Shown one piece after another: positions 415 through 45,317 of a DNA stretch of 64,000 nt. The stretch is from the IMG/VR virus record IMGVR_UViG_3300032307_000691, one strand, 5' to 3'. The notes beneath the pieces were generated by a model. That model searched no databases. It was not told the DNA's origin and saw nothing but the letters and a program-made list of their open reading frames with translations. The stretch is from a virus (taxonomy: Duplodnaviria; Heunggongvirae; Uroviricota; Caudoviricetes). Every line of letters starts with the position of its first letter. Within the stretch, counting starts at the first letter, position 1. The translations under genes were made by a program, and so were the position numbers.

Positions 415-433
415 TTTGTTTGGATATTCCAAA
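415..433 (+). promoter_or_regulatory. TTTGGATATTCCAAA box (plus-strand copy of the GAATATTC-type motif)
   Basis: tttgtttggatattccaaa; same core as the boxes upstream of minus-strand genes; 38 nt before ATG 472. Confidence 0.4.
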
Positions 434-471
434 TCAAATGAGTAATTTCGAACAACTAAACTTTTATAACT

Positions 472-1068
472 ATGACAAAATTTAAATTAGGTACTCAGGT
501 CGTTGTATCTGACCCTTGTTACACCATCCCTACTTGGTGTCAAATCATTGTAGAGAATGTTCTACCCGGTTACTATGAACCCCATGTCAAGAAAACTGAT
601 TTGGGAGATTGGGGTAATCGTATCGGAGCTCTACTGGCAATCCACGAGGATTACATAGGTAAGGAAGATGAATTGAATTTAACTTGGGTTGACCACGCTG
701 GTGAAGTTGGTGTGGATTCAGGTCAAGCTGGTATCTTCTCAAGAGAATCTTATCGAAACGATTCCATCACGGACCGTATTGGTTTGGGAGAAGGTGATAT
801 ATCTTTCTTCAAGGATTTCCCAAATGATGAGGAGGGACAGAAATGGTATACCCATATGGCGTCCCGTACACTTGGTGTATCACATTGGGGGATGTATGAC
901 GAGGGTGTAGTTTCATCATCAGGTATTGGGGACGGAGGATATGACCTCTATGTTCTTACCACAGAAGATGGGGTGGTAGTTGGTTTTTGTATCGATTACC
1001 TCATCGATGATGAAGGATTTATGTTCGATTTTTATATGGACCCATTAATTGTAACAGAACAGAAATGA
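472..1068 (+). CDS. hypothetical protein (198 aa)
   Basis: ORF track; ATG start; ATGA overlap with next gene. Confidence 0.6.
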   Translation: MTKFKLGTQVVVSDPCYTIPTWCQIIVENVLPGYYEPHVKKTDLGDWGNRIGALLAIHEDYIGKEDELNLTWVDHAGEVGVDSGQAGIFSRESYRNDSITDRIGLGEGDISFFKDFPNDEEGQKWYTHMASRTLGVSHWGMYDEGVVSSSGIGDGGYDLYVLTTEDGVVVGFCIDYLIDDEGFMFDFYMDPLIVTEQK

Positions 1069-1358
1069 GAAAAATAGTTTTCCCCCTAAGTGTGATGGTG
1101 ATGGGATTGATGTCATGTCAGTCCCACACATCCTTAGTTCAGGTTTCAGATTACACTGTAATGAAACAGGACTCAACAACATTATTCATTAAGGATTGTG
1201 AATTCGGTCGAACCATTTATAATTCTTGGCAATCAGGTGGTCCATATGTCCCCACGAAAACCAAAGTAGTTTTGGTGGATACCACTGAGTTCAAGAATTT
1301 GTGTGGCAAAGCGGAACCTCACAAGAGTTACCTCCCTCAGGTGACGACGAATCCGTAA
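1065..1358 (+). CDS. putative lipoprotein (97 aa)
   Basis: N-terminal signal with lipobox-like LMSC; ORF track. Confidence 0.5.
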   Translation: MRKIVFPLSVMVMGLMSCQSHTSLVQVSDYTVMKQDSTTLFIKDCEFGRTIYNSWQSGGPYVPTKTKVVLVDTTEFKNLCGKAEPHKSYLPQVTTNP

Positions 1359-1359
1359 A

Positions 1360-1371
1360 TTAGTTTGGCAA
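1360..1371 (+). promoter_or_regulatory. TTAGTTTGGCAA junction motif, copy 3
   Basis: Exact 12-mer directly after stop TAA of 1065..1358 and abutting ATG at 1371. Confidence 0.5.
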
Positions 1372-1814
1372 TGGAAACAAATGAACATGTAGTAACTCTT
1401 CAACCATCTCAGTGGATTAATGCCGGATGGTTCATCCTCCCTGTAGTTGCGGGTTACGTATACCTACCACTTGGTGGAGTCGCAGCTGTGGTAGCTCTAT
1501 ACAAATATTTGGAGGTGGCCACATGGAAGTACAACTTAAACATGAGGACCATAGAAGAAAAGAAAGGAGTCTTCAGTGTCTCTACTGAAGAGATTCAATA
1601 TTATCGAATCAAATCCATCATGGTAGATGAACCGTTATGGATGAGAATCTTTGGATTATCTATTGTACGTGTTGTGTCATCAGAACAGTACAAACCAAAT
1701 CTAGTTCTTTATGCAATCTCCAACGGGGAGTATGTTAAGAATCTACTTAGTGAACATGCATATGAGTGGAGGAAAGAACTTGGTATCCGTGATTACGACA
1801 TCTTTAATTCTTAA
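1371..1814 (+). CDS. hypothetical membrane protein
   Basis: ORF track 1365..1814 begins at TTG inside the motif; first ATG is at 1371; hydrophobic N-terminus. Confidence 0.55.
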   Translation: METNEHVVTLQPSQWINAGWFILPVVAGYVYLPLGGVAAVVALYKYLEVATWKYNLNMRTIEEKKGVFSVSTEEIQYYRIKSIMVDEPLWMRIFGLSIVRVVSSEQYKPNLVLYAISNGEYVKNLLSEHAYEWRKELGIRDYDIFNS

Positions 1815-1817
1815 GCA

Positions 1818-1991
1818 ATGGCAAGTTTCGAAAAAGTAGGTATTGACAAAAGTATCCTCCATGGATGGGTGAAAGCTCAGATGGAGAAGGTAACTTCAGA
1901 AGACGCAAAGGAAGTACTTGACGCTCTCTTTGAAGATTTCTATCTTGAGGAGGTCGATGAAACTCAGGACGGAGTCCCACTGTTCATTTAG
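1818..1991 (+). CDS. small acidic protein (57 aa), not in ORF track
   Basis: ATG at 1818 (MASFEKVGID...); stop TAG 1989-1991 falls inside motif copy 4. Confidence 0.35.
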   Translation: MASFEKVGIDKSILHGWVKAQMEKVTSEDAKEVLDALFEDFYLEEVDETQDGVPLFI

Positions 1992-1999
1992 TTTGGCAA
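1988..1999 (+). promoter_or_regulatory. TTAGTTTGGCAA junction motif, copy 4
   Basis: Exact 12-mer. Confidence 0.5.
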
Positions 2000-2039
2000 A
2001 TTAAGGGTTTACCTTCAGGTGACCCCGGTCATCCCGATT

Positions 2040-2050
2040 TTGCTTGGCAA
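2040..2050 (+). promoter_or_regulatory. TTGCTTGGCAA degenerate motif copy
   Basis: Variant lacking the TA; upstream of 2131 gene. Confidence 0.3.
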
Positions 2051-2110
2051 ATCGTTCTTTGAAATATTTCTCACAGATATTTGGAATTGTGGGTATTTCT
2101 TGTTATATTT

Positions 2111-2127
2111 TATATATAAATATATAT
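2111..2127 (+). promoter_or_regulatory. TATATATAAATATATAT box (T4-late-like TATAAATA core)
   Basis: AT box 4 nt upstream of ATG 2131. Confidence 0.35.
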
Positions 2128-2130
2128 TAT

Positions 2131-2331
2131 ATGGCAACTAAGAAAACAACCACAAGCAAAGTGACCCGTACTCCGGTTACCACCTATGTACCGGTGTCAC
2201 ATCACATTTACCATGACGGTACCTCGTACCGTGTACGTGTAAGTGTTAACGGAACTCGCTACAGCCAGAACTTCTCTAGTAAGAAGAAAGCAATGGCGTT
2301 CCGTAAGAGTTTGTTGTCCCCGACGGTATAA
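2131..2331 (+). CDS. small DNA-binding protein, AP2/Arm-type-like (66 aa)
   Basis: YRVRVSVNGTRYSQNFSSKKKAMAFRK resembles AP2/integrase-arm DNA-binding fold; internal ATG (MATKK) of ORF 2044..2331. Confidence 0.45.
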   Translation: MATKKTTTSKVTRTPVTTYVPVSHHIYHDGTSYRVRVSVNGTRYSQNFSSKKKAMAFRKSLLSPTV

Positions 2332-2355
2332 TATACCGAACAACTAATTCACCCA

Positions 2356-2394
2356 AGGACCTGTGAGAAATACTCATGGGTCCTTTTTATTTTC
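2356..2394 (+). terminator. rho-independent terminator
   Basis: aaggacctgtgag...ctcatgggtcctt hairpin followed by TTTTTATTTT. Confidence 0.55.
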
Positions 2395-2440
2395 GGGGGT
2401 TCACCTCCGACGGGACCTGAGATGGTAGAATTAGTTTGGC

Positions 2441-2452
2441 AAAATCGATGTT
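2441..2452 (+). promoter_or_regulatory. TTAGTTTGGCAA junction motif, copy 5
   Basis: Exact 12-mer. Confidence 0.5.
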
Positions 2453-2488
2453 CAACCATCGTTGTTCCAACAACCTTCGGGGGGAGAT

Positions 2489-2500
2489 TTAGTTTGGCAA
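2489..2500 (+). promoter_or_regulatory. TTAGTTTGGCAA junction motif, copy 6
   Basis: Exact 12-mer, 16 nt upstream of ATG 2516. Confidence 0.5.
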
Positions 2501-2515
2501 AAAGTATTTATCTAT

Positions 2516-3316
2516 ATGAAGCACAAAATGTATGACATAGTATCCGAAGCGGTTAAGGGGGAAGATAACATCAAGAAACTTAAAGAGATGATATCTTATC
2601 TAGTGGATTACAAAAGAAAACAAACCGACACATATAGATTAAGAACCTCAGTACTTGCTGAAAGAAGTGAAGGTTCGGATAATGGTGAACCATTCAAGGA
2701 AGGACCGTTGGTCCTGATGGGTATAGATTTATTCCAACCTGATTTGAACCTCATCAATGGGGTGTTAAAAGATTTGGGTCAAGATATCCAATCCAAAGGT
2801 TACGGGGATATGGAATGTGCGTTCTCCATACATGAAATCATGGTAGAGGTCGGAGGGGTTAAAGTAGATGTGATGACCCTTCTTCCAGCAAACATTAAGA
2901 ATGACCTTAAATATGAACACCCCACACTTCAGGAGGTTCTGTTAGGGGATAATATATTCGAACTAAATAACGATGTATTACCTAAGGTTTCAGAATCACT
3001 CTCCGAGTGGATTGTTAAAATCAAAAAGAAAGGGGTCATCGGTTACGAAGCGTTAAAGAGGGGTACAATTAATGGGGTGTCATACACCCTGTCCCCGAGA
3101 AGGGGTGAAACAGAAGTGACCCCTGAAATTCATGTTACCTTCGGTAAATTAAATCCGGGTCAACAAATCACCCCTAAGATGGTGTACCCCATAATTCATG
3201 TTCGTATTACGTCGGTATCCGACAGAGATAAGTTGTACGAAACCATGGATAAAATCACCGACAAGTACTATAAGATTACCGGTGGTAAAATGGAAATCAG
3301 TACCGGTTTAAGTTAA
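2516..3316 (+). CDS. hypothetical protein (266 aa)
   Basis: ORF 2462..3316 trimmed to first ATG after motif copy 6 (MKHKMYD...). Confidence 0.55.
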   Translation: MKHKMYDIVSEAVKGEDNIKKLKEMISYLVDYKRKQTDTYRLRTSVLAERSEGSDNGEPFKEGPLVLMGIDLFQPDLNLINGVLKDLGQDIQSKGYGDMECAFSIHEIMVEVGGVKVDVMTLLPANIKNDLKYEHPTLQEVLLGDNIFELNNDVLPKVSESLSEWIVKIKKKGVIGYEALKRGTINGVSYTLSPRRGETEVTPEIHVTFGKLNPGQQITPKMVYPIIHVRITSVSDRDKLYETMDKITDKYYKITGGKMEISTGLS

Positions 3317-3344
3317 GAATATAACATATATATTTATATATACA

Positions 3345-3372
3345 CCCTGTCATACGACGGGGTTTTTTTATT
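3345..3372 (+). terminator. rho-independent terminator
   Basis: ccctgtcatacgacgggg hairpin followed by TTTTTTTATTTT. Confidence 0.55.
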
Positions 3373-3611
3373 TTATAACGTTATAAACCTGATACATTTC
3401 CAAAAAAAATAAAATAGTGTTCGTGATTCACACACAGGACAATTCCCGTGGTAGTGTCACAAAGTGGGGAATAGTGGGAGAATCTGGTTTTGTAATACGC
3501 CCAGCTGGAAATATAAAGAAAATATCCGTATATTAGTATATATTTTTCACTACGACAAAAAATGTTCAGATAGTGGGGTTAAAATCGGGGGTTTTTTACC
3601 ATTAATTTGTA

Positions 3612-3806
3612 TTACATATCGGTCGGGGGTTCTTCGAACCCAACCGACGAGTAACTCATAACGGAGGGTAAACCGCTGTACTGACAAATTTCTTCTTCCC
3701 TCTTTTTAACCAGTAGTTCCTTTATATGGGGGTCAAAGTAAACACCATTATCTTCCATATCGGATAGAGGTCGGTGGAGCATGTATTTTGGATTTTCCAT
3801 GACCAT
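3612..3806 (-). CDS. hypothetical protein (64 aa)
   Basis: ORF track; first gene of the long minus-strand block. Confidence 0.35.
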   Translation of the reverse strand: MVMENPKYMLHRPLSDMEDNGVYFDPHIKELLVKKREEEICQYSGLPSVMSYSSVGFEEPPTDM

Positions 3807-3814
3807 ATAACAAA

Positions 3815-4141
3815 TTAAACTACAAAAGGTTCATCACAGTTCGGACATTCTGTAAGGGTGAGTAACTTATTCTTTCTAAACGACCATCCTTCCACCATGG
3901 GTAGTTCCTGTGGGGAGAGTTTTGAATATCCATCCATACATAATACTTCTCCATCTATATCATAGAACCTTCCCTTATATCTGGTTACTATATGGTTTTT
4001 CTCTTTGGAGATATATGGGGTACATCCTTTATACATCTTCTTTAATAAGAGGTGGAATCTATAGCAACCTCCTTCTGTATAGATGTATCTTATGTACCCA
4101 TCTGTATTTCTCAATTCTTCTATGAATGATTCTATATCCAT
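3815..4141 (-). CDS. hypothetical protein (108 aa)
   Basis: ORF track. Confidence 0.5.
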   Translation of the reverse strand: MDIESFIEELRNTDGYIRYIYTEGGCYRFHLLLKKMYKGCTPYISKEKNHIVTRYKGRFYDIDGEVLCMDGYSKLSPQELPMVEGWSFRKNKLLTLTECPNCDEPFVV

Positions 4142-4162
4142 CTTATACTTTATGGTATTATA

Positions 4163-4375
4163 CTATATGGTATTATTCTCTATAGTATCTTCATTATTAT
4201 TTAATCCTCTTACTCTTATATAATCCATTGGAATTTCTCTTCTTAATGACTGTCTTAATCTATTTGTGAACCATTCAACATCATTGGGATTTATTTCTCC
4301 TAAATTGATATTATATGCATTACCTTCTACAGTATCATCATTGATATATCCCCTGCCGAATTTGATATGTTTCAT
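4163..4375 (-). CDS. hypothetical protein (70 aa)
   Basis: ORF track. Confidence 0.4.
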   Translation of the reverse strand: MKHIKFGRGYINDDTVEGNAYNINLGEINPNDVEWFTNRLRQSLRREIPMDYIRVRGLNNNEDTIENNTI

Positions 4376-4387
4376 ATATGGGTTATT

Positions 4388-5776
4388 TTATATTAATTCA
4401 AGTTGTATTTGCATTGTTTCTTGTTTCCACCCGTTTTTTATTAATCTTTTTCTTACCAACCAAACCACATTCGTGGATACACCCGTTATTTTACGAATAT
4501 CCTTATTTTGTACATTTTTTTTCAATAATTTAATTACTTCGGGGTACTTTTCTTCATAATACTCCATAGTTTTCATATATTCTTTATATCTTAGTAATGG
4601 AGATAATAATTCCTCCCATTTTTCATTTTTTATTCTACAATAATATCCATTTGCATTTTCGTAAAAATCTTTTAATGTTTTATATTCGGATACCTTGTTT
4701 TTACATTGTTCATATGTGTATTTATTCTTTCCCCCACCCAACGAACCACCTTTATTACCGTTTAATATCTTCCAACCATTTTCTTTATATTGACGAATAT
4801 AACGACGTTCTTCATGAGATGCATCCAACATTACCAATTTATCGGTTAAAATCTTAAAATCGAATGATAACCCGGTACTCTCATGATATTCCCTAACTTT
4901 GGATGTTGAACCTTCACACAGGTGGTCGGTTTTTCTTTTCTCAGGATTGTAACTCAAACCAACATAAACAGAACCATCAGGGAATTCAAAAGAGTAAACG
5001 TATCTATAACCCAATGTTGGTAATTTTACCATATGGTCAAGCAACTCATACCACCCATTTCTATAAATGGTCGTTTTAGGTACGTGTGGTAATTCCTTCC
5101 TATTATTATATTTTAACGCACATTCTTTGCATCTCTCATATGTCCAATAACCCGATTTATTCTGTCTCCGTTCAAGAGTATCTAATAAATCTTTCCACCC
5201 ATGTCTGCGAATGTTATCATATAAACTGTAATCCTTCTCCCTTAACTCATAAAGAGATTTATATTTGGTAATCAATTCTTTACATTCATCATATGTTCTT
5301 GATGGAGTTGGTTTTTTATAGTTTGGAAAAAATTCCTCCAACCACCCATTTTGATTACAAACATTATACACGGGTCGATTATTTTCAAAAAGTTCACCGG
5401 GGGATTTGTACATCCCTGAAATACTCTGACATTTTTCATATGTAAATGATTCGTAATCCGCCCTTTCTTTAGGGGTTTTCCGATTCGGATAAAAATCATT
5501 TAACCAACCATATTTCCTAATTGCCTTAGATGCCCCCGGATAATCTCTACTTAGATATGTTATATTTTTATATTTTTTAGATATCTCACTACATTTATCA
5601 TATGACCAAATATCGGGCTCATCGTGATTTGGGTATTTAACAGGGAATAGGTCATCTAAAAGATTATTCTTTTTCGCAAACTTAAATGCTCCACTCCATT
5701 TATTCTGGAGTTCACTACGATGTTTACAGGTTTTCGAAACCTTTAACAACTCCTCGTATGTCCACGTTATCGGCAT
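4388..5776 (-). CDS. GIY-YIG nuclease-domain protein with tandem ~45-aa repeats
   Basis: YVYSFEFPDGSVYVGLS...KRKTDH...NGWKILN matches GIY-YIG; five N-terminal and one C-terminal repeat of the type W/Y-x-Y-E-x-C...KYK...NGW(L/Y)E(E/L)(F/L). Confidence 0.6.
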   Translation of the reverse strand: MPITWTYEELLKVSKTCKHRSELQNKWSGAFKFAKKNNLLDDLFPVKYPNHDEPDIWSYDKCSEISKKYKNITYLSRDYPGASKAIRKYGWLNDFYPNRKTPKERADYESFTYEKCQSISGMYKSPGELFENNRPVYNVCNQNGWLEEFFPNYKKPTPSRTYDECKELITKYKSLYELREKDYSLYDNIRRHGWKDLLDTLERRQNKSGYWTYERCKECALKYNNRKELPHVPKTTIYRNGWYELLDHMVKLPTLGYRYVYSFEFPDGSVYVGLSYNPEKRKTDHLCEGSTSKVREYHESTGLSFDFKILTDKLVMLDASHEERRYIRQYKENGWKILNGNKGGSLGGGKNKYTYEQCKNKVSEYKTLKDFYENANGYYCRIKNEKWEELLSPLLRYKEYMKTMEYYEEKYPEVIKLLKKNVQNKDIRKITGVSTNVVWLVRKRLIKNGWKQETMQIQLELI

Positions 5777-6518: not shown

Positions 6519-6519
6519 A

Positions 6520-6741
6520 TTATTTATTTTTCCTCCATCCCCACGGTTCAGGTGCATTACTAGCAAGTGACGCTACATCGACATCTAATGTTTTATCATA
6601 AACAGCAACGTAAGAGTTTCCTCTTTGGGTATCAAGAGTTCTCTCAACTTCCTTTTCGGTATAGAGGGGTTCCAACTCAACCTCACCGTTCTTCCAAGAT
6701 TTCCATACATCGAAATCTTTTAGTTCTTCTAATGTAATCAT
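6520..6741 (-). CDS. hypothetical protein (73 aa)
   Basis: ORF track. Confidence 0.4.
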   Translation of the reverse strand: MITLEELKDFDVWKSWKNGEVELEPLYTEKEVERTLDTQRGNSYVAVYDKTLDVDVASLASNAPEPWGWRKNK

Positions 6742-8277: not shown

Positions 8278-8451
8278 TTAGTTTTCTTTAAAGAGTGAAA
8301 GGTACATTAAGTATAGTGCCAGTATTCCCATACCAACAAACATACTCATAACAACAAGGGTGTATAATTCGAACCATAGTAAGATTGGTCCGACCATTAA
8401 CCCCAACGATAATGCCCCAATAGCATTAATTCTTGATTCCCACTTTTCCAT
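8278..8451 (-). CDS. small membrane protein
   Basis: ORF track start is TTG; first ATG gives MEKWESRI...; two TM helices. Confidence 0.4.
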   Translation of the reverse strand: MEKWESRINAIGALSLGLMVGPILLWFELYTLVVMSMFVGMGILALYLMYLSLFKEN

Positions 8452-8475
8452 GATGTTGAACAAATATACGAAATG

Positions 8476-8497
8476 TTTTTGAATATTCCAAAAAATT
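8476..8497 (-). promoter_or_regulatory. GAATATTC-type promoter-like box (minus strand reads AATTTTTTGGAATATTCAAAAA)
   Basis: Followed on the minus strand by TATATTTG (TAnnTTTG) just before the start of 8278..8463. Confidence 0.5.
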
Positions 8498-12009: not shown

Positions 12010-12335
12010 ATGTTGGTTACTTTATCAGTTACCCAAAGTTCTCTCGGCATACCAACATTACTCATCATCACCACATAAAAATAAATGCATTGGCGATTAA
12101 CACTGTCGGCGTTGGCAAATGAACCGTACAAATCATTTTTAACCAATGATTGAACGAAGGAACCACCGGGGTAACCGACGTTCCATTTGGTACATAGTAT
12201 ACTAACGGCAATGGATTTAACGTGGTCCATTGATTCAGTGTCTCCCAATATGTTTAATGGGAGTAGTTGACGATTCTCAAAAAGGAACTTCGTAACAGCT
12301 CCTTCGACAGCGGTGATTTGTTCATCTATGTTCAT
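12006..12335 (-). CDS. hypothetical protein (109 aa)
   Basis: ORF track; ATG confirmed at 12333-12335. Confidence 0.5.
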   Translation of the reverse strand: MNIDEQITAVEGAVTKFLFENRQLLPLNILGDTESMDHVKSIAVSILCTKWNVGYPGGSFVQSLVKNDLYGSFANADSVNRQCIYFYVVMMSNVGMPRELWVTDKVTNI

Positions 12336-12351
12336 GATACAATAATAAGAA

Positions 12352-12380
12352 TTTTTTTGAATATACCAAAAATTTTTTTT
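12352..12380 (-). promoter_or_regulatory. GAATATTC-type promoter-like box (variant GGTATATTC)
   Basis: tttttttgaatataccaaaaatttttttt, 17 nt upstream of start 12335. Confidence 0.45.
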
Positions 12381-13655: not shown

Positions 13656-13874
13656 TCACTTCTTCTTTTTCTTTTTGAACTTGTTCTTGAATTTGGTAAC
13701 CTTTGATTTGAGCTTTGAAACTTTGTTCCCTAACTCCTTTTCCCTTTCAATGAAAATACCTTCGTTCTCTAAGAATTCAAAGTGACGTTTTTTCATCATT
13801 GGGATTGACAACAGGAACCCTCCCGCAAGAAGTGTAATAGAGAGAGTAATCAGCGCAATGACTTCGTTGTTCAT
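13656..13874 (-). CDS. small membrane protein with K-rich tail (72 aa)
   Basis: Single TM helix; ORF track. Confidence 0.45.
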   Translation of the reverse strand: MNNEVIALITLSITLLAGGFLLSIPMMKKRHFEFLENEGIFIEREKELGNKVSKLKSKVTKFKNKFKKKKKK

Positions 13875-13916
13875 TTGATACGTTATTAAAAATTCAACGC
13901 ATCAAATCTAAAAAAA

Positions 13917-13941
13917 TATTTTCGAATATCCAAACTATTTT
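13917..13941 (-). promoter_or_regulatory. GAATATTC-type promoter-like box (minus strand reads AAAATAGTTTGGATATTCGAAAA)
   Basis: Contains TAGTTTGG, the same core as the plus-strand TTAGTTTGGCAA motif. Confidence 0.45.
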
Positions 13942-22814: not shown

Positions 22815-23546
22815 TTACTGTTCTAATGTTGGTTTAAGCCACAAAATATTTTCCTTGAAAATGTAATTTCTAAGTGCAGGATAATCGTTGAGAATTTTTA
22901 ATGTTTTAATCGTATCGTGTTTGAAACATTTAAATAACTCTTCCCTAATCCTTTCAATTGAAACTACTTTCATTTTTGTTTCGTAATCATAATCTTGGAT
23001 TACCCCGTCCATGAATGGTCCAATCCAAAATCCTTTGGTTACACAAAAACGAATTGCTCTGAGTATCCTCAATGGGTCATCATCAAAGGTTACTTTACAA
23101 TCCAACGGTGTTCTCAAGTAACCTCGTTTTAAATCTTCGATTCCGTTGAAGTAATCGATTAGGTTACCATCGGTATCTTTAGCAATCGCATTTAAAGTGA
23201 AGTCCCTACGAATCAAATCATCGTATAAAGTGCCAGGTTCAATTATTGGTTGTCTTGTGCCGGGAATGTAACCAACCTCTTTACGAGCCATTACAAAATC
23301 GGCAACACCCTGATGTTTATGTCCCACCGGAAACTTTGCTCGTATGGTAAAACAATCAGGTGTAACCAAAAATAATTCAAACCCTTCCTGTTTAAGATAT
23401 TCTTCAAGAATGCCAAACATGGTATGAGCAGAACTAACGTCTTTTAATAAATCATCTGATGGTACTGCAACGTAATCGACATCCTTAGATTCTAATTCAA
23501 GAATCTCGTCTCTAACCTTACCACCCACTTCATAAAATGTAAACAT
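22815..23546 (-). CDS. minimal nucleotidyltransferase (CCA-adding / polyA-polymerase head domain)
   Basis: N-terminal YEVGGKVRDEIL...DVDYV matches the GGxVRD...DxD head-domain motif. Confidence 0.6.
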   Translation of the reverse strand: MFTFYEVGGKVRDEILELESKDVDYVAVPSDDLLKDVSSAHTMFGILEEYLKQEGFELFLVTPDCFTIRAKFPVGHKHQGVADFVMARKEVGYIPGTRQPIIEPGTLYDDLIRRDFTLNAIAKDTDGNLIDYFNGIEDLKRGYLRTPLDCKVTFDDDPLRILRAIRFCVTKGFWIGPFMDGVIQDYDYETKMKVVSIERIREELFKCFKHDTIKTLKILNDYPALRNYIFKENILWLKPTLEQ

Positions 23547-23567
23547 AGTACAAAAATAAAAAATTAT

Positions 23568-23588
23568 TTAGAATATCCAAAAAAAATA
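23568..23588 (-). promoter_or_regulatory. GAATATTC-type promoter-like box (GGATATTCTAAA)
   Basis: 22 nt upstream of start 23546. Confidence 0.45.
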
Positions 23589-23609
23589 AAACCCCTTTCG
23601 GGGTTTTTT
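23588..23609. terminator. bidirectional rho-independent terminator
   Basis: AAAACCCCTTTCGGGGTTTTTT. Confidence 0.7.
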
Positions 23610-24754: not shown

Positions 24755-24937
24755 TCATACTTTATTTGGATGAGAAAATGGGTAATCCTTAATATTCTTT
24801 ACCCGAGCACTCCATGAATATTTTCGAATCCAAGTGACAGCATCACGAGGGTCCTCGAAAACAACATTACGACGTTCCCAAGCTCTTACCTTGGGGTCAT
24901 CATTGAAGAAATCATAAAAAATGTGAACCTTGTTCAT
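24755..24937 (-). CDS. hypothetical protein (60 aa)
   Basis: ORF track. Confidence 0.4.
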   Translation of the reverse strand: MNKVHIFYDFFNDDPKVRAWERRNVVFEDPRDAVTWIRKYSWSARVKNIKDYPFSHPNKV

Positions 24938-24976
24938 TGTTTGTTAGATTTAATTTCATAACAAACATAAAACATA

Positions 24977-25002
24977 TTTTTGGAATATCCAAAAAAATAT
25001 TC
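24977..25002 (-). promoter_or_regulatory. GAATATTC-type promoter-like box (minus strand reads GAATATTTTTTTGGATATTCCAAAAA)
   Basis: 40 nt upstream of start 24937; abuts the stop of 25002..25307. Confidence 0.45.
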
Positions 25003-27806: not shown

Positions 27807-27827
27807 ACCACAAAGATATTAACAACA

Positions 27828-27851
27828 TTTGAATATTCCAAAAAATATTTC
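27828..27851 (-). promoter_or_regulatory. GAATATTC-type promoter-like box (GGAATATTCAAA)
   Basis: 22 nt upstream of start 27806. Confidence 0.5.
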
Positions 27852-27880
27852 AAATATTTTTATATAAATCTATTTTTGTT

Positions 27881-31450: not shown

Positions 31451-31469
31451 TTTTATATATAAATATCAT
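31451..31469 (-). promoter_or_regulatory. TATTTATATATA AT-box (T4-late-like)
   Basis: Immediately upstream of start 31443. Confidence 0.35.
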
Positions 31470-34170: not shown

Positions 34171-34671
34171 TCAACTAAAATCTGTGGATGAACTTACTCG
34201 AAGTCCATCGATTATTAAATCATCATATTTCTCATCGTCCAACCAAAAGGACCCATGTCCTCTCGCCCTTTCCGCTTTACGATATTCTTCGTTAACAACC
34301 CAACCATCTGGTTGACCCCATTCAAGAGCCATGGCAATAAACTCCTCAACGTTCCATTCTTCACCGTATTCATCAACAACTCTACCTGAACGAATGAATG
34401 AGAGTAATTCCTCTTTATTTGAATAATGTTTGTTCTTGTGGAAATTCCAACAAAACTTCCACCCGCCACTTCGTTTACCTAAATGAATGTTAGTTCCGTC
34501 AATAAAAATACCCCACGGACTTTCTCTACCCCATTGGTCATCAATGGGTTCGTTAAAACCGCACTCAATGTTAATTGGAGTTAAATCCAAATCCATAACT
34601 CGTTGAACTAGAACCTTTTTTCGTTCTTCCATTTCTTCCGCCCGTGGAATTCTATAATAGTTCGTACCCAT
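34171..34671 (-). CDS. hypothetical protein (166 aa)
   Basis: ORF track. Confidence 0.5.
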   Translation of the reverse strand: MGTNYYRIPRAEEMEERKKVLVQRVMDLDLTPINIECGFNEPIDDQWGRESPWGIFIDGTNIHLGKRSGGWKFCWNFHKNKHYSNKEELLSFIRSGRVVDEYGEEWNVEEFIAMALEWGQPDGWVVNEEYRKAERARGHGSFWLDDEKYDDLIIDGLRVSSSTDFS

Positions 34672-34701
34672 TTTTTATGATTATTGTACAAAGATATAAA
34701 A

Positions 34702-34725
34702 TTTTTTAGAATATACAAAAAAATT
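34702..34725 (-). promoter_or_regulatory. GAATATTC-type promoter-like box (variant GTATATTCTAAAAAA)
   Basis: 31 nt upstream of start 34671. Confidence 0.45.
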
Positions 34726-34727: not shown

Positions 34728-34758
34728 CAAAAAAAAAATCCCCGATTTCTCGGGGATT
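34728..34758 (-). terminator. rho-independent terminator
   Basis: ATCCCCGATTTCTCGGGGAT hairpin followed by a U-run on the minus strand. Confidence 0.65.
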
Positions 34759-34784
34759 CTTCTAACTAATTGAAAATCAGTTTA

Positions 34785-38130: not shown

Positions 38131-38153
38131 AAAAAACCCCTTTTCAGGGGTTT
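38131..38153 (-). terminator. rho-independent terminator
   Basis: AACCCCTGAAAAGGGGTT followed by a U-run on the minus strand; overlaps the stop of 38144..38719. Confidence 0.55.
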
Positions 38154-38719
38154 AAAAATTGAATTATTTTGTCTTTTATTCCTGACTGTTTTATGCCTTC
38201 ATTACCCTTGGGTGTGAGGACAAAGTTATCTAATCCCCAATCTTTCCAATCCTCACCGTTTTTACCCATATCCAAATCATCGATGGAAACCCAATGAGTA
38301 ACTTCAGGGTGGTCATGTAAGAATTGTCTTATCTCAATAACACGAGTCATCTCTAAATCCCAACGTGGGGACCAAATCCAAACCTTATCATTGTACCAAT
38401 TACATTGACCTAAGTTAGTGGTTACCGCAATTGGTTTTTTGATGATACCTTGAAGTTCATAGTATTCACCCAATTCATCCAAGTTTGCATGGTGTTTCCA
38501 ATCAGAACTTATAACGATTTCTGCACCGGTTTCTTCTAAGATTTGATTAAGTACTTCGACCGCTTTCTTGTTAAAGTTGTCAAATCGATACTGTAATGGA
38601 ATTTCTCTACTTGACATGGATAGTTTACGTCCACCCCATTTGTCTTGTTTCTTGTAACGACCCCCCCACTCTGAGGATAAACAGATTACTCCGTCATGGT
38701 CTAAAAATATAACTTTCAT
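38144..38719 (-). CDS. HAD-superfamily phosphatase (PNK 3'-phosphatase-like)
   Basis: MKVIFLDHDGVI DxDGV motif; tandem paralog of 38722..39294. Confidence 0.55.
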   Translation of the reverse strand: MKVIFLDHDGVICLSSEWGGRYKKQDKWGGRKLSMSSREIPLQYRFDNFNKKAVEVLNQILEETGAEIVISSDWKHHANLDELGEYYELQGIIKKPIAVTTNLGQCNWYNDKVWIWSPRWDLEMTRVIEIRQFLHDHPEVTHWVSIDDLDMGKNGEDWKDWGLDNFVLTPKGNEGIKQSGIKDKIIQFLNP

Positions 38720-38721
38720 AA

Positions 38722-39294
38722 TTAATAGTTCATTTCTATGACGGTTTTATCCAACATTGCCTTGGCTATTTCGTAATAGTGTTGGTTAAAACCATCTTTG
38801 TTTCTCGGTGAAGGTAACACATGGACAAAATGATTTCTTTGTCCATATAACATATCGGAATCATCATCTATGATAATGTAGTTCTCTACACCAGATTCAT
38901 CCATTATTTTTTGTTGTTCCTCTTCTGACCAATTTATATGGTGAAATTTTAAATCATTCTCTAAGTAGTACTGAATCTCTAAACCTCTTGGTATGTGTAG
39001 TTTTGATGTCCTCAATGATGGTGTGATTCCAATAATCTCACCACTCATGTTTTCGTACTCCCACACCTTTTTCATAAACTCAATTCCACTCATTCTCCAA
39101 GTGGATGAAATCACAATCTTTGCCCCCGTTTCCTCGATGAGTTTGTTTAATAGGTCTTTACTATTAACACAAAATCTTTGGTAATGGTCCTTACGACCAT
39201 CTTCCCATACCCATTCTTGGTATTGACATTCACCAGCTCGGTAAGCATTTTCACAATTCAATACACCATCAATATCTAAAAAGATTATCTTCAT
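38722..39294 (-). CDS. HAD-superfamily phosphatase, tandem paralog
   Basis: MKIIFLDIDGVLNC; ...ISSTWR / ...ISSDWK shared. Confidence 0.55.
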   Translation of the reverse strand: MKIIFLDIDGVLNCENAYRAGECQYQEWVWEDGRKDHYQRFCVNSKDLLNKLIEETGAKIVISSTWRMSGIEFMKKVWEYENMSGEIIGITPSLRTSKLHIPRGLEIQYYLENDLKFHHINWSEEEQQKIMDESGVENYIIIDDDSDMLYGQRNHFVHVLPSPRNKDGFNQHYYEIAKAMLDKTVIEMNY

Positions 39295-39296
39295 GG

Positions 39297-39644: not shown

Positions 39645-39743
39645 TTTTTGGGTTTAGTTAGTAAACACTCATAACATACAATGGATAATCCACTAAGGAT
39701 TGGTATGGGTTTACCGCATTTTTTACAATTGTTAATACTACTA

Positions 39744-40427
39744 TTACTCATAAAACTTTTTAAATACCTTTTTAAATTCTTTATAATATAGTTTATATGT
39801 TATATCACTCCACATATGTAATTTACCGGTGGACATGAAAGCTTGAATCTCGTCGTCAATTATTTTTTTATCATCAACATAACCAACCTTTATCAAATGT
39901 CTTTTCAAATGATTATAATGGATTGGTTTGATATGTGATATTAAATAATCCATCTCAACTTTATAATTCAGATTGGTATAATATAAACCATGAGCAATCT
40001 CATGATTCATTGTTGAAGATTTGAGGGTGTCCGCACCAATCAAATACCACGGGTGTGGTGTGCCGTCATTCCGTATTTGCGATTCCCTATCGCAATAATT
40101 GATGATTTCATTCATTACCTCATCATAATTGGTTTCGGTTTTTCTAAACAACTTCTTCGCTTCAAATAAAATATTTGATGGGATGTTGTAACCACTCCAA
40201 TCTGCGGGATAGGTGAAAACATTCTTCTTGTTTGTTTTCGTGTAGAGTCTCATGTACTGCTCTAACGTGAAGAACTGTCTTCTTATTTCAGGGAATGGGG
40301 ATTCGTAGAACTCTTGGTATCTACAAAACAACATTGACCTGTCGTAATTATCTTTAATTACTGTTGCGAATATAAATGGTCTGATTTCTTCAACGTGTCC
40401 TTTAACTAATGGATTGTCTATTGTCAT
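39744..40427 (-). CDS. putative zinc metallopeptidase (HExxH)
   Basis: MNHEIAHGLYY HExxH motif. Confidence 0.4.
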   Translation of the reverse strand: MTIDNPLVKGHVEEIRPFIFATVIKDNYDRSMLFCRYQEFYESPFPEIRRQFFTLEQYMRLYTKTNKKNVFTYPADWSGYNIPSNILFEAKKLFRKTETNYDEVMNEIINYCDRESQIRNDGTPHPWYLIGADTLKSSTMNHEIAHGLYYTNLNYKVEMDYLISHIKPIHYNHLKRHLIKVGYVDDKKIIDDEIQAFMSTGKLHMWSDITYKLYYKEFKKVFKKFYE

Positions 40428-40750
40428 TATTTACCATTAAGAAATTCATTAGATAGAGAATCTGTTTTAATTTCATCGATGTTTTGCATCTCAATCTTTT
40501 TGTTCTCGTTTCTCAGTTTATTAATTTCTCTTCTTTGAAAATAACAAAGTAATAAAAGAGCCAGTGCTCCTGCCATTGTTAGATTTTTCTGGTTTTTCTT
40601 TAAAAAATCAATCATATTAAAAATCTCCTTCAGTGTGTGTTTTATTTTCTTCGTCCTCGTCCCACCATAAAAAATCCTCACCCTTATAATTGGGGTGATT
40701 CCTATGCATGTAATCAATTCCCCGTACCCAAAAGTACGAAACCACCCCAA
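40427..40750 (-). CDS. membrane protein (107 aa)
   Basis: ORF track; hydrophobic segments. Confidence 0.4.
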   Translation of the reverse strand: MGWFRTFGYGELITCIGITPIIRVRIFYGGTRTKKIKHTLKEIFNMIDFLKKNQKNLTMAGALALLLLCYFQRREINKLRNENKKIEMQNIDEIKTDSLSNEFLNGK

Positions 40751-40798
40751 CGAATGGTAACATCATAAGAAAAATCCAAAAATTGCCCATACTAATAA

Positions 40799-41014
40799 TT
40801 ATTTGTTTCTTTCCATTGCCTTCTTTAATTCTTCGGCATATTCTTTTTTAATCTCTTCTATTGACTTGATGATTCTACCGTGGTCGTCCACGATGTTACC
40901 TTCTTTATCAATAAGGTTACCTTTTTCATCCATCATGGGTGCTGTTAACATCCCATAAACAAAAATGACTGATGCCAATAAAACTGCGGCAATTATGTAA
41001 TATAAAATTGTCAT
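40799..41014 (-). CDS. small membrane protein
   Basis: ORF 40799..41074 trimmed to MTILYYIIAAV to avoid overlap. Confidence 0.4.
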   Translation of the reverse strand: MTILYYIIAAVLLASVIFVYGMLTAPMMDEKGNLIDKEGNIVDDHGRIIKSIEEIKKEYAEELKKAMERNK

Positions 41015-41445
41015 GGCGTAAAATATTTTGACTTCCAGAATTGATACCATTTTCTCTTCTGTACTGGTCGACATTGAGAGAATGGATTATCCCCAAAATT
41101 CACTTTACCTAAATATTTTGATGATAAAACATTCAAGAAAATTTCATGATAATCTTGGGGGATTGTATTAAAATCGGCGGTAATATCTACCTTTAAAACT
41201 ATTGGACCGTTATTGTGTTGGACTATTAATGTTTCTTGTAATTTAACAACGGTTGATGCCTTTATATCAATCCATTCACCGCCGTATCCTATTTCTAAAT
41301 GATTCTTGTTGTCCGGGTTTACTACTGTCATATCGTCTTCTTTTATGTTCGGTGTTACTTTCTTCCTTGCTCTACTCGGTTTCTTCGGAGATGATTGTTC
41401 CATATTGTTCTGCTGCTTTGGGGTTCCTTTCCATAAAAATATCAT
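41011..41445 (-). CDS. hypothetical basic protein
   Basis: ORF track; true start may be an internal ATG. Confidence 0.4.
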   Translation of the reverse strand: MIFLWKGTPKQQNNMEQSSPKKPSRARKKVTPNIKEDDMTVVNPDNKNHLEIGYGGEWIDIKASTVVKLQETLIVQHNNGPIVLKVDITADFNTIPQDYHEIFLNVLSSKYLGKVNFGDNPFSQCRPVQKRKWYQFWKSKYFTP

Positions 41446-41665
41446 AAGCCACTTGGTATCTACCTAACTCTACTTGAGCAGGAAAAACCTCCCAATAAAG
41501 AGAATCTTTTTGTGACTCTAATTTTTTAATAGTTTCATTTAATAATCCAACTTCTTTTTTTAAATCATCTATCTCTTTGGTTCTAATTATGGTTTGATTG
41601 ATTGCCCAAATTAAACTCAATAAAGTAATGACGATATAAAATCTAATGTCATTAAGAATTTTCAT
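41372..41665 (-). CDS. membrane-anchored coiled-coil protein (97 aa)
   Basis: ORF track. Confidence 0.45.
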   Translation of the reverse strand: MKILNDIRFYIVITLLSLIWAINQTIIRTKEIDDLKKEVGLLNETIKKLESQKDSLYWEVFPAQVELGRYQVAYDIFMERNPKAAEQYGTIISEETE

Positions 41666-41914
41666 ATAATGTTTTTAAAATACCTCCTCCGCTATACCAA
41701 GTATTTCAGCAATACAAAGTAGTGCTGCGGCACCAGTAAAATTTAATGTAAAGAGACAATAACATGCCCCAATTCGTATTCCTGACTTCACGATACTAAT
41801 TCGGAAGTGGACATTGGTTTTTGATTCTTTTTCCTGCATATTAAAAGTATAAATAATTTTTTTCAGTTTTCCAAATTGGTGACAAAACTAAACACTAGAA
41901 TTTAAATTAACAAA

Positions 41915-41940
41915 TATTTTTTAGAATATCTTAAATAAAA
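41915..41940 (-). promoter_or_regulatory. GAATATTC-type promoter-like box (AGATATTCTAAAAAA)
   Basis: Overlaps the stop of 41931..43319; upstream of a small unlisted ORF (~41683..41838). Confidence 0.35.
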
Positions 41941-43319
41941 TCGAATTTTTCTTTCTTTATTTCTAAATTCGAGAAGTTTTCCATCCTTTTGTTTAAGATT
42001 TCTATGGATTTGCTAAACAATTTATCTACCGGAGTATTAGCTTTACCATATGATTGTGATAGCTTACCCTTACGATATTGTAAGTTTATCGTCTTTTTAT
42101 TATGTGTCATTGAGAGATAAACATATGAGAGTGCCGTAACAAATTGTTTACCCATACAATTTTTCATATTATATCCTTCAGTTATGAAATCATCTTCAGT
42201 TTTTAAAACTCTAATCTCAAATTTTTCATCATCAATTATGATTGGTATTTCAATCTGATTAACGAAATCACCTGAGTGACTCACCCTAACTCTATAACCT
42301 TTTTTAAAGTGGTTTTTTAAACTCTCCCATTTTTTAAACATTAATTCAAAACTGTCATCATCTTTAGCAATGAATTTAACTTCCATATTTTTATTTGAAA
42401 GGAATTCTCTAATGGTGAGAACTTCATTTAATGAGTGTACCAATGAACTGGTTTGTAATCCTGACTTCTCCCAATTATTAAACAACTGCACTAAGTATTT
42501 TTTCTCGGATTCGTTTTTTAATGTGTGGTAACGGTTGTTCGCAACATTAATTCCACAACTATGTTCCATCCAATTAATTTGTTTTATATAATCAATATAA
42601 TTCTCACCAAACAATCTACAGATGTAACTCAATGTTCTAATGTTCACATCTCTTTCTTGTGCTTTGTTTATTTCACCAATTAGATATTTGTTTTTGATTC
42701 CATACGAATCAAGAACTGACGGTATGAATTTATATTCATTCTCCTTTAACCATTTTGATTTGGGGTAGTCATGTAGAAGGGAGTAGTAAACACCATCATG
42801 GCCTTTTATTTTCTTCCTATCCAAATGAAAGTCAACAATCAAATCATAGAAACTATTGAGGTTTGTTTTGTTAACGTAATCTTTATCCTTGAGGTGTTCA
42901 CTCTCAATTAATGGGGTTAATCTTGACACGAGATATCTAACAACATCATCACATGCTCGTTTATATTTTACTCCCCAATAATTGGTTCTCTTCTCACCTT
43001 TCAAACAACCATTTTCAGTTAGGTCCAATAGATAATCAAATCTATTATCGCCTCTCTTACTTTTATTCTTTATCATTTCTTCACCCAAACTTTCATTTAC
43101 CAATTGATAGTAAACGTTGAAGTTCCCACTCTTTAATTTCAAACTAAATCCATGGGAGATTAAAATCTTTTTGAGCTTGCCGAATCTTTTATAATCAAAT
43201 GAGAACTCGGAATAGAAATGTATATCTTCTGAGGTTTCATATAACCTCATCTCACAAACATATTCGAGATTTGTTTTGCGTTCTTTTTTAACTTGTCGGT
43301 GATTAACCAATAAATCCAT
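41931..43319 (-). CDS. large conserved phage protein, paralog of 43365..45245 (family B)
   Basis: Shared blocks IPSVLDSYGIKNKY / LLSVLDSYGIKSKF and EGYNMKNCMGKQF / EGSFMHHCVASYANK. Confidence 0.55.
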   Translation of the reverse strand: MDLLVNHRQVKKERKTNLEYVCEMRLYETSEDIHFYSEFSFDYKRFGKLKKILISHGFSLKLKSGNFNVYYQLVNESLGEEMIKNKSKRGDNRFDYLLDLTENGCLKGEKRTNYWGVKYKRACDDVVRYLVSRLTPLIESEHLKDKDYVNKTNLNSFYDLIVDFHLDRKKIKGHDGVYYSLLHDYPKSKWLKENEYKFIPSVLDSYGIKNKYLIGEINKAQERDVNIRTLSYICRLFGENYIDYIKQINWMEHSCGINVANNRYHTLKNESEKKYLVQLFNNWEKSGLQTSSLVHSLNEVLTIREFLSNKNMEVKFIAKDDDSFELMFKKWESLKNHFKKGYRVRVSHSGDFVNQIEIPIIIDDEKFEIRVLKTEDDFITEGYNMKNCMGKQFVTALSYVYLSMTHNKKTINLQYRKGKLSQSYGKANTPVDKLFSKSIEILNKRMENFSNLEIKKEKFDFI

Positions 43320-43364
43320 ATATAAAATATATATGGACTCACGGTCATTATGTAGTGTTAATTT

Positions 43365-45245
43365 CTAAAAACCAAATGGGTCGTGTTCTAAAAACCCGGC
43401 ACCTCCACCCGCTTGTGGGATTGGTACTTCTTTACCGTTAATTTTAACCCTAACTTTTTTAACATCAATGTGGTCGAGTAATCTCGAATACCTCAATGAT
43501 TTGATTCTATCTGACACAACACTAAGTGCTTTATTGAAATGTTCAGGTGGTATACGATTACAGAAATGACGTTCTTGTACAACGTGACCTGTTTTCTTAT
43601 CGTACTCACAGGTTACCCTATCCATTCCATTATTTAAACGAATAGATACTATCATTGACGTTTCTTTATTTGCATATGATGCAACGCAGTGATGCATAAA
43701 TGAACCTTCCTCAGCGTACTCCTCCTCCCTCTTTAATATCGTGGGATGAAATTCATAGATTTCATCATTGAATTCATAGATGATAGGGGTTTCAATCTTC
43801 CTTACCGTTCTGTTATCGTAAACATATTCTTTGGACCAACCTTTACGAATAGTTGATATTAGTTTGGTTAGCTCCAAGTGTTCAGTGTGAAACTCATCGT
43901 AGGTTGTTGACCTCAATTTATATGAAGGGTCGTACTCCTTTAATTTTTTAATCATATCAACGTGGTCCCTAAACAAACTGTATAATCCACTGACCGCTCT
44001 TAGTGGTGATTCGTTACCCGCTTTGACAAGTGAGTTGATGATTTTAATTATGTTCTCCTTTTCTGATTGTTCCAAATCATGTTGTTCAGTCAACCTTCGA
44101 GCATTAATTGGTACTGGTGACTGGTAAACATTCTTTTCTTTTTTATCAAAAAACTTTAAAACCTTTTCATCCAAATTACCCATGTACTTACTGTACTCAC
44201 TACCAAAGAAACTTGCGAAATTTCTTATCTCAAAGATGTCCATGTTGGTATTGGTATGGAATAACTTGTTTGTGAATTTTGATTTGATTCCATAACTATC
44301 CAACACCGATAATAAAAGTTTATTATCATTCCGTTTTAGGTATTTCTGACCCGGATAGTGGAATCGAATTAAGGACATGTAATCATTTGGTACCTTAATC
44401 TTCTTTGTTTTAACGAAGAAATCGATAAACCTTTTTAATAGGTCATTCCTACCCTCGTTCTCCCTGATGTTAGGTAACCACGAATTTAATTGACCCATCT
44501 CCTCCAAGATTGCTTGTATGAATTCGGTATCGTTGATTGTTTTACAAAACTCAGGATAGATTTTATGATTCCCATTTACTACACTAATGAAATTAAAGAA
44601 ACCATTTGATGTGATGAGACGCTCAACAAATGCAAAGGAGTTTTTTCTAAAACGTGTACTCCTACTATTACCAATAACATTTGTTTCACCTATTGTGAAG
44701 TTACCGGTTGATAGGTCGAATGTTAAACTCTCGGAATGAAATTTCCTTTTAAAGTATATTCTATTTACTCCTCTGTATTTTGTAAATTTCTTTGCCTTAA
44801 TAACAAGTTTTCCTTCATCGATAACAATTGTTCTTTCTATTGTTACTATAATAATAGATGATGAGGGTCTACCGTAATGTCTTTTGATGTGTTTGTCTTC
44901 GGTGGTGTAGAAATTCTCCCCACCATCAGTACCATAAAAGCTTATGAATGGAACTTTACTATGTTCCTTTGGTTCATCATTATCTAAATGATAATGATTG
45001 GTTTTCCTATTATTCTTTTTTTTGAAGAAGGTGATATCGGTAACAACTTTCCTAAATGGAGTTGGGCGTTTTTTAAGCTCATCAATTAAACGAACTGTGT
45101 TCTCACCAAATATGTCATCGAAATCGTAATTCTTGGTCTCATGTTTATTCATTCGTTTTAACATGATACCCCTATCCTGAATGTTACAATAATCCTTACA
45201 GACCTTGATTATCGCGTATTGGAATCTCTGATTTAATATTTCCAT
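43365..45245 (-). CDS. large conserved phage protein (626 aa, family B)
   Basis: Tandem paralog; HHCVASY Cys motif. Confidence 0.55.
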   Translation of the reverse strand: MEILNQRFQYAIIKVCKDYCNIQDRGIMLKRMNKHETKNYDFDDIFGENTVRLIDELKKRPTPFRKVVTDITFFKKKNNRKTNHYHLDNDEPKEHSKVPFISFYGTDGGENFYTTEDKHIKRHYGRPSSSIIIVTIERTIVIDEGKLVIKAKKFTKYRGVNRIYFKRKFHSESLTFDLSTGNFTIGETNVIGNSRSTRFRKNSFAFVERLITSNGFFNFISVVNGNHKIYPEFCKTINDTEFIQAILEEMGQLNSWLPNIRENEGRNDLLKRFIDFFVKTKKIKVPNDYMSLIRFHYPGQKYLKRNDNKLLLSVLDSYGIKSKFTNKLFHTNTNMDIFEIRNFASFFGSEYSKYMGNLDEKVLKFFDKKEKNVYQSPVPINARRLTEQHDLEQSEKENIIKIINSLVKAGNESPLRAVSGLYSLFRDHVDMIKKLKEYDPSYKLRSTTYDEFHTEHLELTKLISTIRKGWSKEYVYDNRTVRKIETPIIYEFNDEIYEFHPTILKREEEYAEEGSFMHHCVASYANKETSMIVSIRLNNGMDRVTCEYDKKTGHVVQERHFCNRIPPEHFNKALSVVSDRIKSLRYSRLLDHIDVKKVRVKINGKEVPIPQAGGGAGFLEHDPFGF

Positions 45246-45263
45246 AAAATTTGTGTTCGGTGG

Positions 45264-45284
45264 TCAAATATACAAAATTTTTTT
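45264..45284 (-). promoter_or_regulatory. weak GAATATTC-type box (GTATATTTGACC)
   Basis: Between the divergent genes 43365..45245 and 45318..45467. Confidence 0.3.
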
Positions 45285-45317
45285 GTGAAATCACTATTTA
45301 TATAAAAAATTTATAAT

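Follow-up and report, generated by a model that had tools for sequence, protein, structure and literature searches.

A recurrent box with the core ATATTC lies upstream of eight genes in IMG/VR virus record IMGVR_UViG_3300032307_000691 (Duplodnaviria; Heunggongvirae; Uroviricota; Caudoviricetes), a stretch of 64,000 nt that was analysed at its full length and is hereafter called the window. We consider it very probable that the eight boxes each form the upstream half of a promoter for the host RNA polymerase carrying its primary sigma factor, of the Bacteroidota sigma-A type. The TTTG that opens each box would be the −33 element, a TAnnTTTG further downstream would be the −7 element, and the sequence G/T-(A/T)-ATATTC-N-AAAA would fill approximately positions −32 to −21 of the 19–20 nt spacer between them. 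The promoter type is known, and the finding consists of additional members in a new phage; of the extended form, including its sharing by host housekeeping promoters and phages, we found no description in the literature searched, the coverage of which was incomplete.

Number, layout and placement of the boxes

An earlier note on this DNA had counted at least ten copies of the box, which are named here after the positions given there. Eight of these are clean copies (Table 1), the other two being a degenerate sequence without TTTG (copy 41915) and a −7 box on its own (copy 45264). Read along the coding strand, the eight share a common layout composed of a T-run, TTTG, G or T, an optional A or T, ATATTC, any nucleotide, AAA(A), approximately 12 nt, and TAnnTTTG. 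A search of the window for TTTG-N(1,2)-ATATTC-N-AA returned exactly eight distinct sites, against 0.17 expected, a number reached by none of 100 shuffles, and a search for TTTTTTGGAATATTCAAAAA with up to three mismatches returned six sites against 0.13 expected, several of them matching on both strands. The invariant, asymmetric core of the eight boxes is ATATTC. The palindromic core stressed in the earlier note, GAATATTC, was given too much weight, because it occurs three times in the window, against 2.3 expected, and just two of the eight boxes contain it. TTTG is 7 or 8 nt away from the conserved C, and the position of this C varies by 1 nt relative to both the −33 and the −7 box among the window copies.

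The boxes are also strongly biased in their position relative to start codons, as had been proposed. All eight are intergenic, although only 7.6% of the window is intergenic, and all are co-directional with the next gene, the TTTG being situated 35–60 nt 5′ of its ATG; the probability that all eight would be intergenic and co-directional by chance is roughly 4e-12. No tRNA genes and no Rfam families were found in the window, which indicates that the boxes do not belong to RNA genes.

Likeness to Bacteroidota sigma-A promoters

Promoters read by the primary sigma factor of the Bacteroidota contain TTTG at −33 and TAnnTTTG at −7, with an AT-rich spacer between the two (PMC7366714, PMC9723704), the −7 box spanning positions −12 to −5 in Flavobacterium psychrophilum (PMC9723704), and this promoter type has already been used in annotating a Bacteroides phage (PMC13139388). 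In the window, every one of the eight copies has the −33 TTTG and a spacer of 19 or 20 nt, and the TAnnTTTG-like element that had been noticed downstream of several of them is exact in six and has a single mismatch in the other two. The eight sites thus agree with sigma-A promoters in their −33 element, −7 element, AT-rich spacer and placement 5′ of genes, as well as in a predicted start 5 nt past the −7 box. Of the eight exact matches to TTTG-N18-21-TAnnTTTG in the window (2.7 expected), the boxes account for six. Conversely, promoters of the Escherichia coli type, TTGACA-N16-18-TATAAT, were not enriched between 20 and 40 kb (60 sites against 77.7 expected from shuffles), and no good match to this pattern coincided with any box in that interval.

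The single promoter architecture suggested in the earlier note, with a −33-like TTTGG box plus a −7 box, therefore fits the published sigma-A promoter of the Bacteroidota. Since the eight sites conform to the −33/−7/spacer consensus, the box, as read from its sequence, is the −33 element together with the conserved first half of the spacer, at approximately −32 to −21, and would not be a separate second signal. The difference from the published promoters is in the spacer, which is merely AT-rich and of variable length in those, whereas the copies described here conserve some 12 of its positions, G-(A)-ATATTC-N-AAAA.

Predicted start sites and leaderless mRNAs

The −7 box is separated by exactly 4 nt from the ATG in copies 12352, 23568 and 27828 (ATGs at 12335, 23546 and 27806, minus strand). 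Transcription would start 5 nt past the G of the −7 box, and, with this G at −5, the A of the ATG would be position +1 in these three copies, from which leaderless mRNAs are predicted. For comparison, 88 non-redundant phage promoters of the box type were collected from IMG/VR, and in each the nucleotides between the −7 box and the first ATG belonging to a long open reading frame (ORF) were counted. Ten of the 88 had a distance of 4 nt and two a distance of 5 nt, none had 0–3 or 6–14 nt, and there was a broad spread from 15 nt upwards. This combination of a gap and a spike is consistent with a fixed start 5 nt past the −7 box, as previously described (PMC9723704), and the spike at 4 nt would provide indirect but independent support for these being working promoters. 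Additionally, in two of the bacterial matches described below the leader of an S-adenosylmethionine (SAM) riboswitch begins just 3′ of the box.

Conservation in related phages

Near-identical short contigs occur in several metagenomes, and IMG/VR contains relatives with 68–75% nucleotide identity on contigs of 37–288 kb. The orthologous intergenic regions of these relatives keep all three elements, namely −33 box, extension and −7 box. Copy 24977 retains the T-run, the box and the −7 element, with changes in the variable part of the spacer and a 10-nt indel upstream. At the place of copy 13917, relative L037 carries TTTTGAATATTCAAAAA...TAGATTTG, in which TTTTGAATATTCAAAAA replaces TTTGGATATTCGAAAA with the total length unchanged; likewise, the terminator preceding copy 34702 is kept in L212 and other relatives, with TTTGGTATATCCAAAA...TATATTTG at the same place. 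The terminator, box and −7 element of copy 23568 are all retained in L036, with a leader of 17 nt instead of 4 nt. Around copy 27828, a fragment of ca. 90 nt comprising most of the intergenic region 27807–27880 (minus strand) and the start of the gene is 98% identical to L037, the two phages being ca. 75% identical overall.

The promoter of copy 24977 is a particular case, as its 38 nt (24958–24995) are 100% identical in four IMG/VR loci (L006, L035, L041 and L063) in whose flanks, 11–13 kb long, tblastx detected no similarity to the window, although elsewhere these contigs are ca. 69% identical to it. Either this sequence is mobile, as a cassette, or it is very strongly constrained. The first option extends to a general explanation, by which the copies would primarily be recombination cassettes whose near-identity is kept because they serve the shuffling of gene modules, promoter activity being incidental. 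There is a precedent in the promoter-early stem-loops (PeSL) of T4-type phages, which are composite terminator/promoter motifs (PMC4122927; also PMC2839356). Copies 23568 and 34702 resemble these in that a hairpin terminator is followed by a promoter between variable small genes, the two hairpins reported earlier having been confirmed at 23588–23607 and 34732–34763 (minus strand); moreover, one promoter has an identical sequence in relatives although its surroundings differ, and the leader preceding the tRNA nucleotidyltransferase gene differs in length in L036. Nevertheless, only two of the eight copies have a stem-loop, the likeness to PeSL is one of sequence, and conservation falls precisely on the positions of a functional promoter that host genes also have. 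Selection on the promoter can therefore explain the similarity without any role in recombination, and we regard the cassette explanation as quite improbable.

Occurrence in other phages and in bacterial chromosomes

The distribution of the extended form was examined with a strict pattern of 20 specified bases, TTTGGATATTC-N-AAA-N7-10-TAnnTTTG. This pattern was found in 64 IMG/VR contigs of very different sizes and with 28–52% G+C, including that of phage PTm1 (L004), and in at least 120 contigs from bacterial genomes, mostly of Bacteroidota. Approximately four-fifths of 80 bacterial record titles among the matches listed belong to this phylum, and the carriers include Bacteroidales, Prevotella/Segatella, Sphingobacterium, Riemerella, Flavobacterium, Pontibacter and Niastella. 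Most of the few matches in genomes outside the Bacteroidota come from one conserved sequence, with nearly equal flanks, in AT-rich Campylobacterota (L085, L101, L110 and L139); these look like chance matches and not like promoters.

The core is specific, since two composition-matched permutations of GATATTC produced only 2 and 4 viral matches, compared to 64 for GATATTC itself and 56 and 89 for the natural variants GTATATC and GAATATTC, respectively. The sequence TTTGGTATATC, tried as a control core and the source of the 56 matches just given, was discarded as a control because it is a real box variant, present in the orthologue of copy 34702.

Among the bacterial matches listed, a tRNA gene on the same strand is situated 10–59 nt 3′ of the box in 29 of 119, and other boxes lie 5′ of the genes for S20, L25, L31, AtpD (ATP synthase beta), GreA, MetK, a CshA-like helicase and ArgR. 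In a bacterial genome, tRNA transcription units number only a few dozen. The presence of about one quarter of the matches at tRNA genes is therefore a large enrichment, considering how few these units are and the 4,507 start sites that have been mapped in B. thetaiotaomicron (PMC7366714). Conversely, the box was rare at other canonical promoters of the same bacterial loci, being exact in none of 92 and present with up to one mismatch in four of them, and it was found within one mismatch in 27 of 118 further promoters of the phage loci.

Several of the box-bearing tRNA promoters of Bacteroidota (L069, L089, L103, L115 and L183) have a GC-rich start right after the −7 box, TA(C/T)CTTTG-CAC(C/T)CGCAAA, which may be a discriminator-like element for growth-rate control.

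Candidate readers of the box

Besides a promoter, the earlier note had contemplated a binding site for a phage regulator. By this explanation the box would be an operator for a phage-encoded repressor or activator co-regulating one temporal class, as could be expected of a sequence that is repeated, partly palindromic and overlapping promoters. Phages also prefer the more symmetric TTTGGATATTCCAAA form, the variable base after the conserved C being a C in 37 of the 64 viral matches but in only 19 of 120 host matches among those listed, in which A predominates (69 of 120). The distribution of the box argues strongly in the opposite direction, because the identical extended sequence occurs in dozens of unrelated phage contigs, with 24–52% GC, and in the chromosomes of many orders of Bacteroidota, 5′ of tRNA, ribosomal-protein and other housekeeping genes. 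Such a presence across diverse phages and a bacterial phylum, without restriction to a lineage, indicates that whatever reads the box belongs to the host. Additionally, none of the window proteins scanned was recognised as a DNA-binding regulator, and the boxes do not show a dyad at fixed spacing, as GAATATTC is not over-represented in the window and ATATTC is asymmetric. A phage operator is thus very hard to reconcile with these data, and we consider it extremely improbable.

A reader belonging to the host could also be a protein other than the polymerase. In this case, ATATTC-N-AAAA plus TTTG(G) would be the spacer-embedded site of a conserved host protein, such as a Fis-like or growth-rate regulator of the promoters for stable RNAs and ribosomal proteins, and phages would have copied this site to plug into that regulation. 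The box does mark a subset of host promoters, as it was exact in none of the 92 neighbouring canonical promoters, and this subset is rich in genes for tRNAs, ribosomal proteins, GreA and ATP synthase. A partial dyad, TTTGG-N5-CCAAA, is perfect in copies 24977 and 415 and in many phage matches, and the rarity of the permuted cores is also as such a site would require. Yet this symmetry is loose, being broken in most host matches listed by the A that follows the C, and the variation between 7 and 8 nt in the distance from TTTG to C would be poorly tolerated by a rigid dimer. We know of no such host factor, and none that would fit turned up in the literature searched. At positions −32 to −21, moreover, sigma region 4, contacts with the spacer or DNA bending could act without an extra protein. 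On balance, a dedicated host protein seems unlikely to us.

Strength of the promoter assignment

The assignment of the boxes to host-type promoters would have the phage show the unmodified host enzyme look-alikes of strong promoters, in the same extended form as those of tRNA, ribosomal-protein and other housekeeping genes. The promoters would head short units of small unknown ORFs and genes for nucleotide, NAD and RNA-repair functions, two of them fused to an upstream terminator, in a layout like that expected for the early, host-polymerase-dependent region of a large lytic phage. Judging from this arrangement, the units probably form an early class dependent on the host polymerase; the single temporal class proposed in the earlier note is plausible. 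The affinity of the phage also speaks for the assignment. By its nicotinate phosphoribosyltransferase (NAPRTase), the closest cultured relative is the jumbo Tenacibaculum phage PTm1, with 60% identity, and the next matches of this protein are in Bacteroides (crAss-like) phages; in addition, the promoter form occurs mostly in Bacteroidota genomes.

Several points weigh against this assignment. The −7 box departs from TAnnTTTG by one mismatch in both copy 415 (TAATTTCG) and copy 12352 (TATTATTG). The rarity of the box at ordinary canonical host promoters indicates that the extension is not required by sigma-A. The counts come from 64 kb of a probably much larger genome, so that the distribution among gene classes is incomplete. 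Lastly, the architecture of the sites, their placement, orientation and enrichment, their conservation in relatives and their presence at host housekeeping promoters are observed directly, whereas actual initiation and early timing are inferred, which counts in the same sense, as are promoter strength and the contribution of the ATATTC-AAAA stretch.

This stretch could represent an extended contact with sigma or the polymerase, a feature of DNA shape, or the site of a conserved host factor. We tentatively put forward, with considerable doubt, that G-(A)-ATATTC-N-AAAA following the −33 TTTG is an undescribed promoter element of the Bacteroidota, for extended recognition by sigma/polymerase or for a conserved host factor, which would be the mark of strong promoters, perhaps under growth-rate control, at the genes for tRNAs and ribosomal proteins and would have been adopted wholesale by large Bacteroidota phages for their host-polymerase-dependent genes, often with leaderless mRNAs. 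If functional, the longer form would offer a rule, ready for use, by which to recognise or design strong promoters in Bacteroides and Flavobacterium, and would give a handle on the control of stable-RNA synthesis in Bacteroidota.

Two well-known systems offer parallels. The early promoters of phage T4 are strong, are read by the unmodified host sigma-70 polymerase and have extra conserved positions beyond −35 and −10. Both these and the phage copies described here are closer to an extended consensus than typical host promoters. The T4 early promoters (PMC2988021) are also alike in being near-identical, host-type promoters located before short units of small early genes, although they differ in sigma type and consensus, and the likeness to the copies in the window is drawn from sequence. 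As for the second system, the promoters for rRNA and tRNA of E. coli possess UP elements, Fis sites and a GC-rich discriminator. They constitute a special subclass, with extra upstream or spacer elements common to stable-RNA and ribosomal genes, and the tRNA copies from hosts resemble them further in their GC-rich start, TAnnTTTG-CACCCGCAAA. Unlike in E. coli, the extra element is here inside the spacer and not 5′ of the −35 element, and the phage copies lack the GC-rich start.

Individual sites and their genomic context

The coordinates of the promoters and associated features are collected in Table 1. Together they provide a transcription map of an otherwise unannotated region of 45 kb, with eight host-type promoters, two terminator–promoter junctions and three predicted leaderless mRNAs; this map also points to a likely separate class of the TATATAAA type, described below.

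Table 1. Promoters with the ATATTC box and associated features in the window. Copies are named after the positions at which they were first reported; coordinates are from the first letter of the window.
Copy	Coordinates	Strand	Feature	First T of TTTG	Details
415	419..450	+	Box promoter, only plus-strand copy	419	TTTG (419-422), GATATTC C AAAT..., −7-like TAATTTCG (443-450); spacer 20; ATG of 198-aa ORF at 472
8476	8461..8492	−	Box promoter TTTGGAATATTCAAAAACATTTCGTATATTTG	8492	Spacer 20; 57-aa ORF ATG at 8451, 9 nt past −7 box
12352	12340..12370	−	Box promoter TTTGGTATATTCAAAAAAATTCTTATTATTG	12370	Spacer 19; ATG 12335, exactly 4 nt past −7 box; leaderless mRNA predicted
13917	13903..13934	−	Box promoter TTTGGATATTCGAAAATATTTTTTTAGATTTG	13934	Spacer 20; 72-aa ORF ATG at 13874
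23568	23551..23581	−	Box promoter TTTGGATATTCTAAATAATTTTTTATTTTTG	23581	Spacer 19; tRNA nucleotidyltransferase-like gene ATG 23546, 4 nt past −7 box; leaderless mRNA predicted
	23588..23607	−	Hairpin terminator AAAACCCCGAAAGGGGTTTT then T-run		Directly 5′ of promoter 23551-23581; terminator-plus-promoter cassette
24977	24962..24993	−	Box promoter TTTGGATATTCCAAAAATATGTTTTATGTTTG	24993	Spacer 20; 60-aa ORF ATG at 24937
27828	27811..27842	−	Box promoter TTTGGAATATTCAAATGTTGTTAATATCTTTG	27842	Spacer 20; ATG 27806, 4 nt past −7 box; leaderless mRNA predicted
34702	34689..34719	−	Box promoter TTTGTATATTCTAAAAAATTTTATATCTTTG	34719	Spacer 19; 166-aa ORF ATG at 34671
	34732..34763	−	Hairpin terminator (14 pairs) then T-run		Directly 5′ of promoter 34689-34719
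41915	41883..41935	−	Degenerate box TTTAAGATATTCTAAAAAA (~41915-41935) then box-less canonical promoter TTTGTTAATTTAAATTCTAGTGTTTAGTTTTG (41883-41914)		Outside clean class
45264	45265..45272	−	−7-like box TATATTTG only		TTTTG then TATATTTG; no ATATTC, no −33 TTTG at 18-21 nt
	45304	−	TATATAAATA box		Just 5′ of −7-like box 45265-45272

The window has ca. 35% G+C, and a megablast search with 6 kb of it did not return any nucleotide match among GenBank phages. Seven of the eight promoters lie on the minus strand, in which a block between 4 and 45 kb contains many small ORFs without family matches together with genes for a thymidylate synthase, the NAPRTase, an adenylosuccinate synthetase, a tRNA nucleotidyltransferase-like protein, two HAD 'Swiss army knife' RNA-repair domains, an exonuclease, a phosphoesterase and two PcfJ-like proteins. 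This content is, to judge from the sequence, that of a non-structural, early- or middle-type region of a large phage, probably of the Bacteroidota. Comparison of the ten genes directly 3′ of the copies with PHROGs and Pfam recognised only the tRNA nucleotidyltransferase-like gene (22815–23546). The two PcfJ-like proteins are adjacent (41931–45245, minus strand), as are the two proteins with HAD RNA-repair domains (38144–39294, minus strand), both pairs being unusual cargo, and a tblastn search with the PcfJ-like protein gave no match in the phage collection.

Other boxes in the window

Two further kinds of boxes were observed. The sequence TTAGTTTGGCAA, presumably the 'first' box of the earlier reader, has six copies on the plus strand, at 163, 389, 1361, 1989, 2432 and 2490. 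In the first four, its TAG is the stop codon of the abutting ORF, and the other two are inside the intergenic region 2332–2515. No −7 box was found at promoter distance from the TTAGTTTGGCAA copies, which have TAGTTTGG in common with copy 13917.

Boxes of the form TATATAAA(T/A)A or TTTATATA(A/T)A are situated at 2113, 45299 and 50059 on the plus strand and at 31459 and 36346 on the minus strand, 7–19 nt before ATGs, and the ORFs 3′ of them begin with MATKK, MAAKG, MAKVI or MSKES. Two more boxes of this form lie at 27866 and 45304 on the minus strand, upstream of box promoters. All of them resemble the late promoter of T4, TATAAATA, and, on the basis of this resemblance, may represent a second, phage-controlled promoter class. 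The intergenic region 27807–27880 (minus strand) contains a TATATAAAAA box and a box promoter together, flanked by genes that have diverged from those of L037, and the gene 3′ of it may have tandem promoters of two classes.

Outside the minus-strand block, the window also contains some unusual cargo, comprising a protein of the tryptophan-halogenase family (E 1.5e-108; 59296–60831, minus strand) and three glycosyltransferases in a plus-strand block at 50286–55687.

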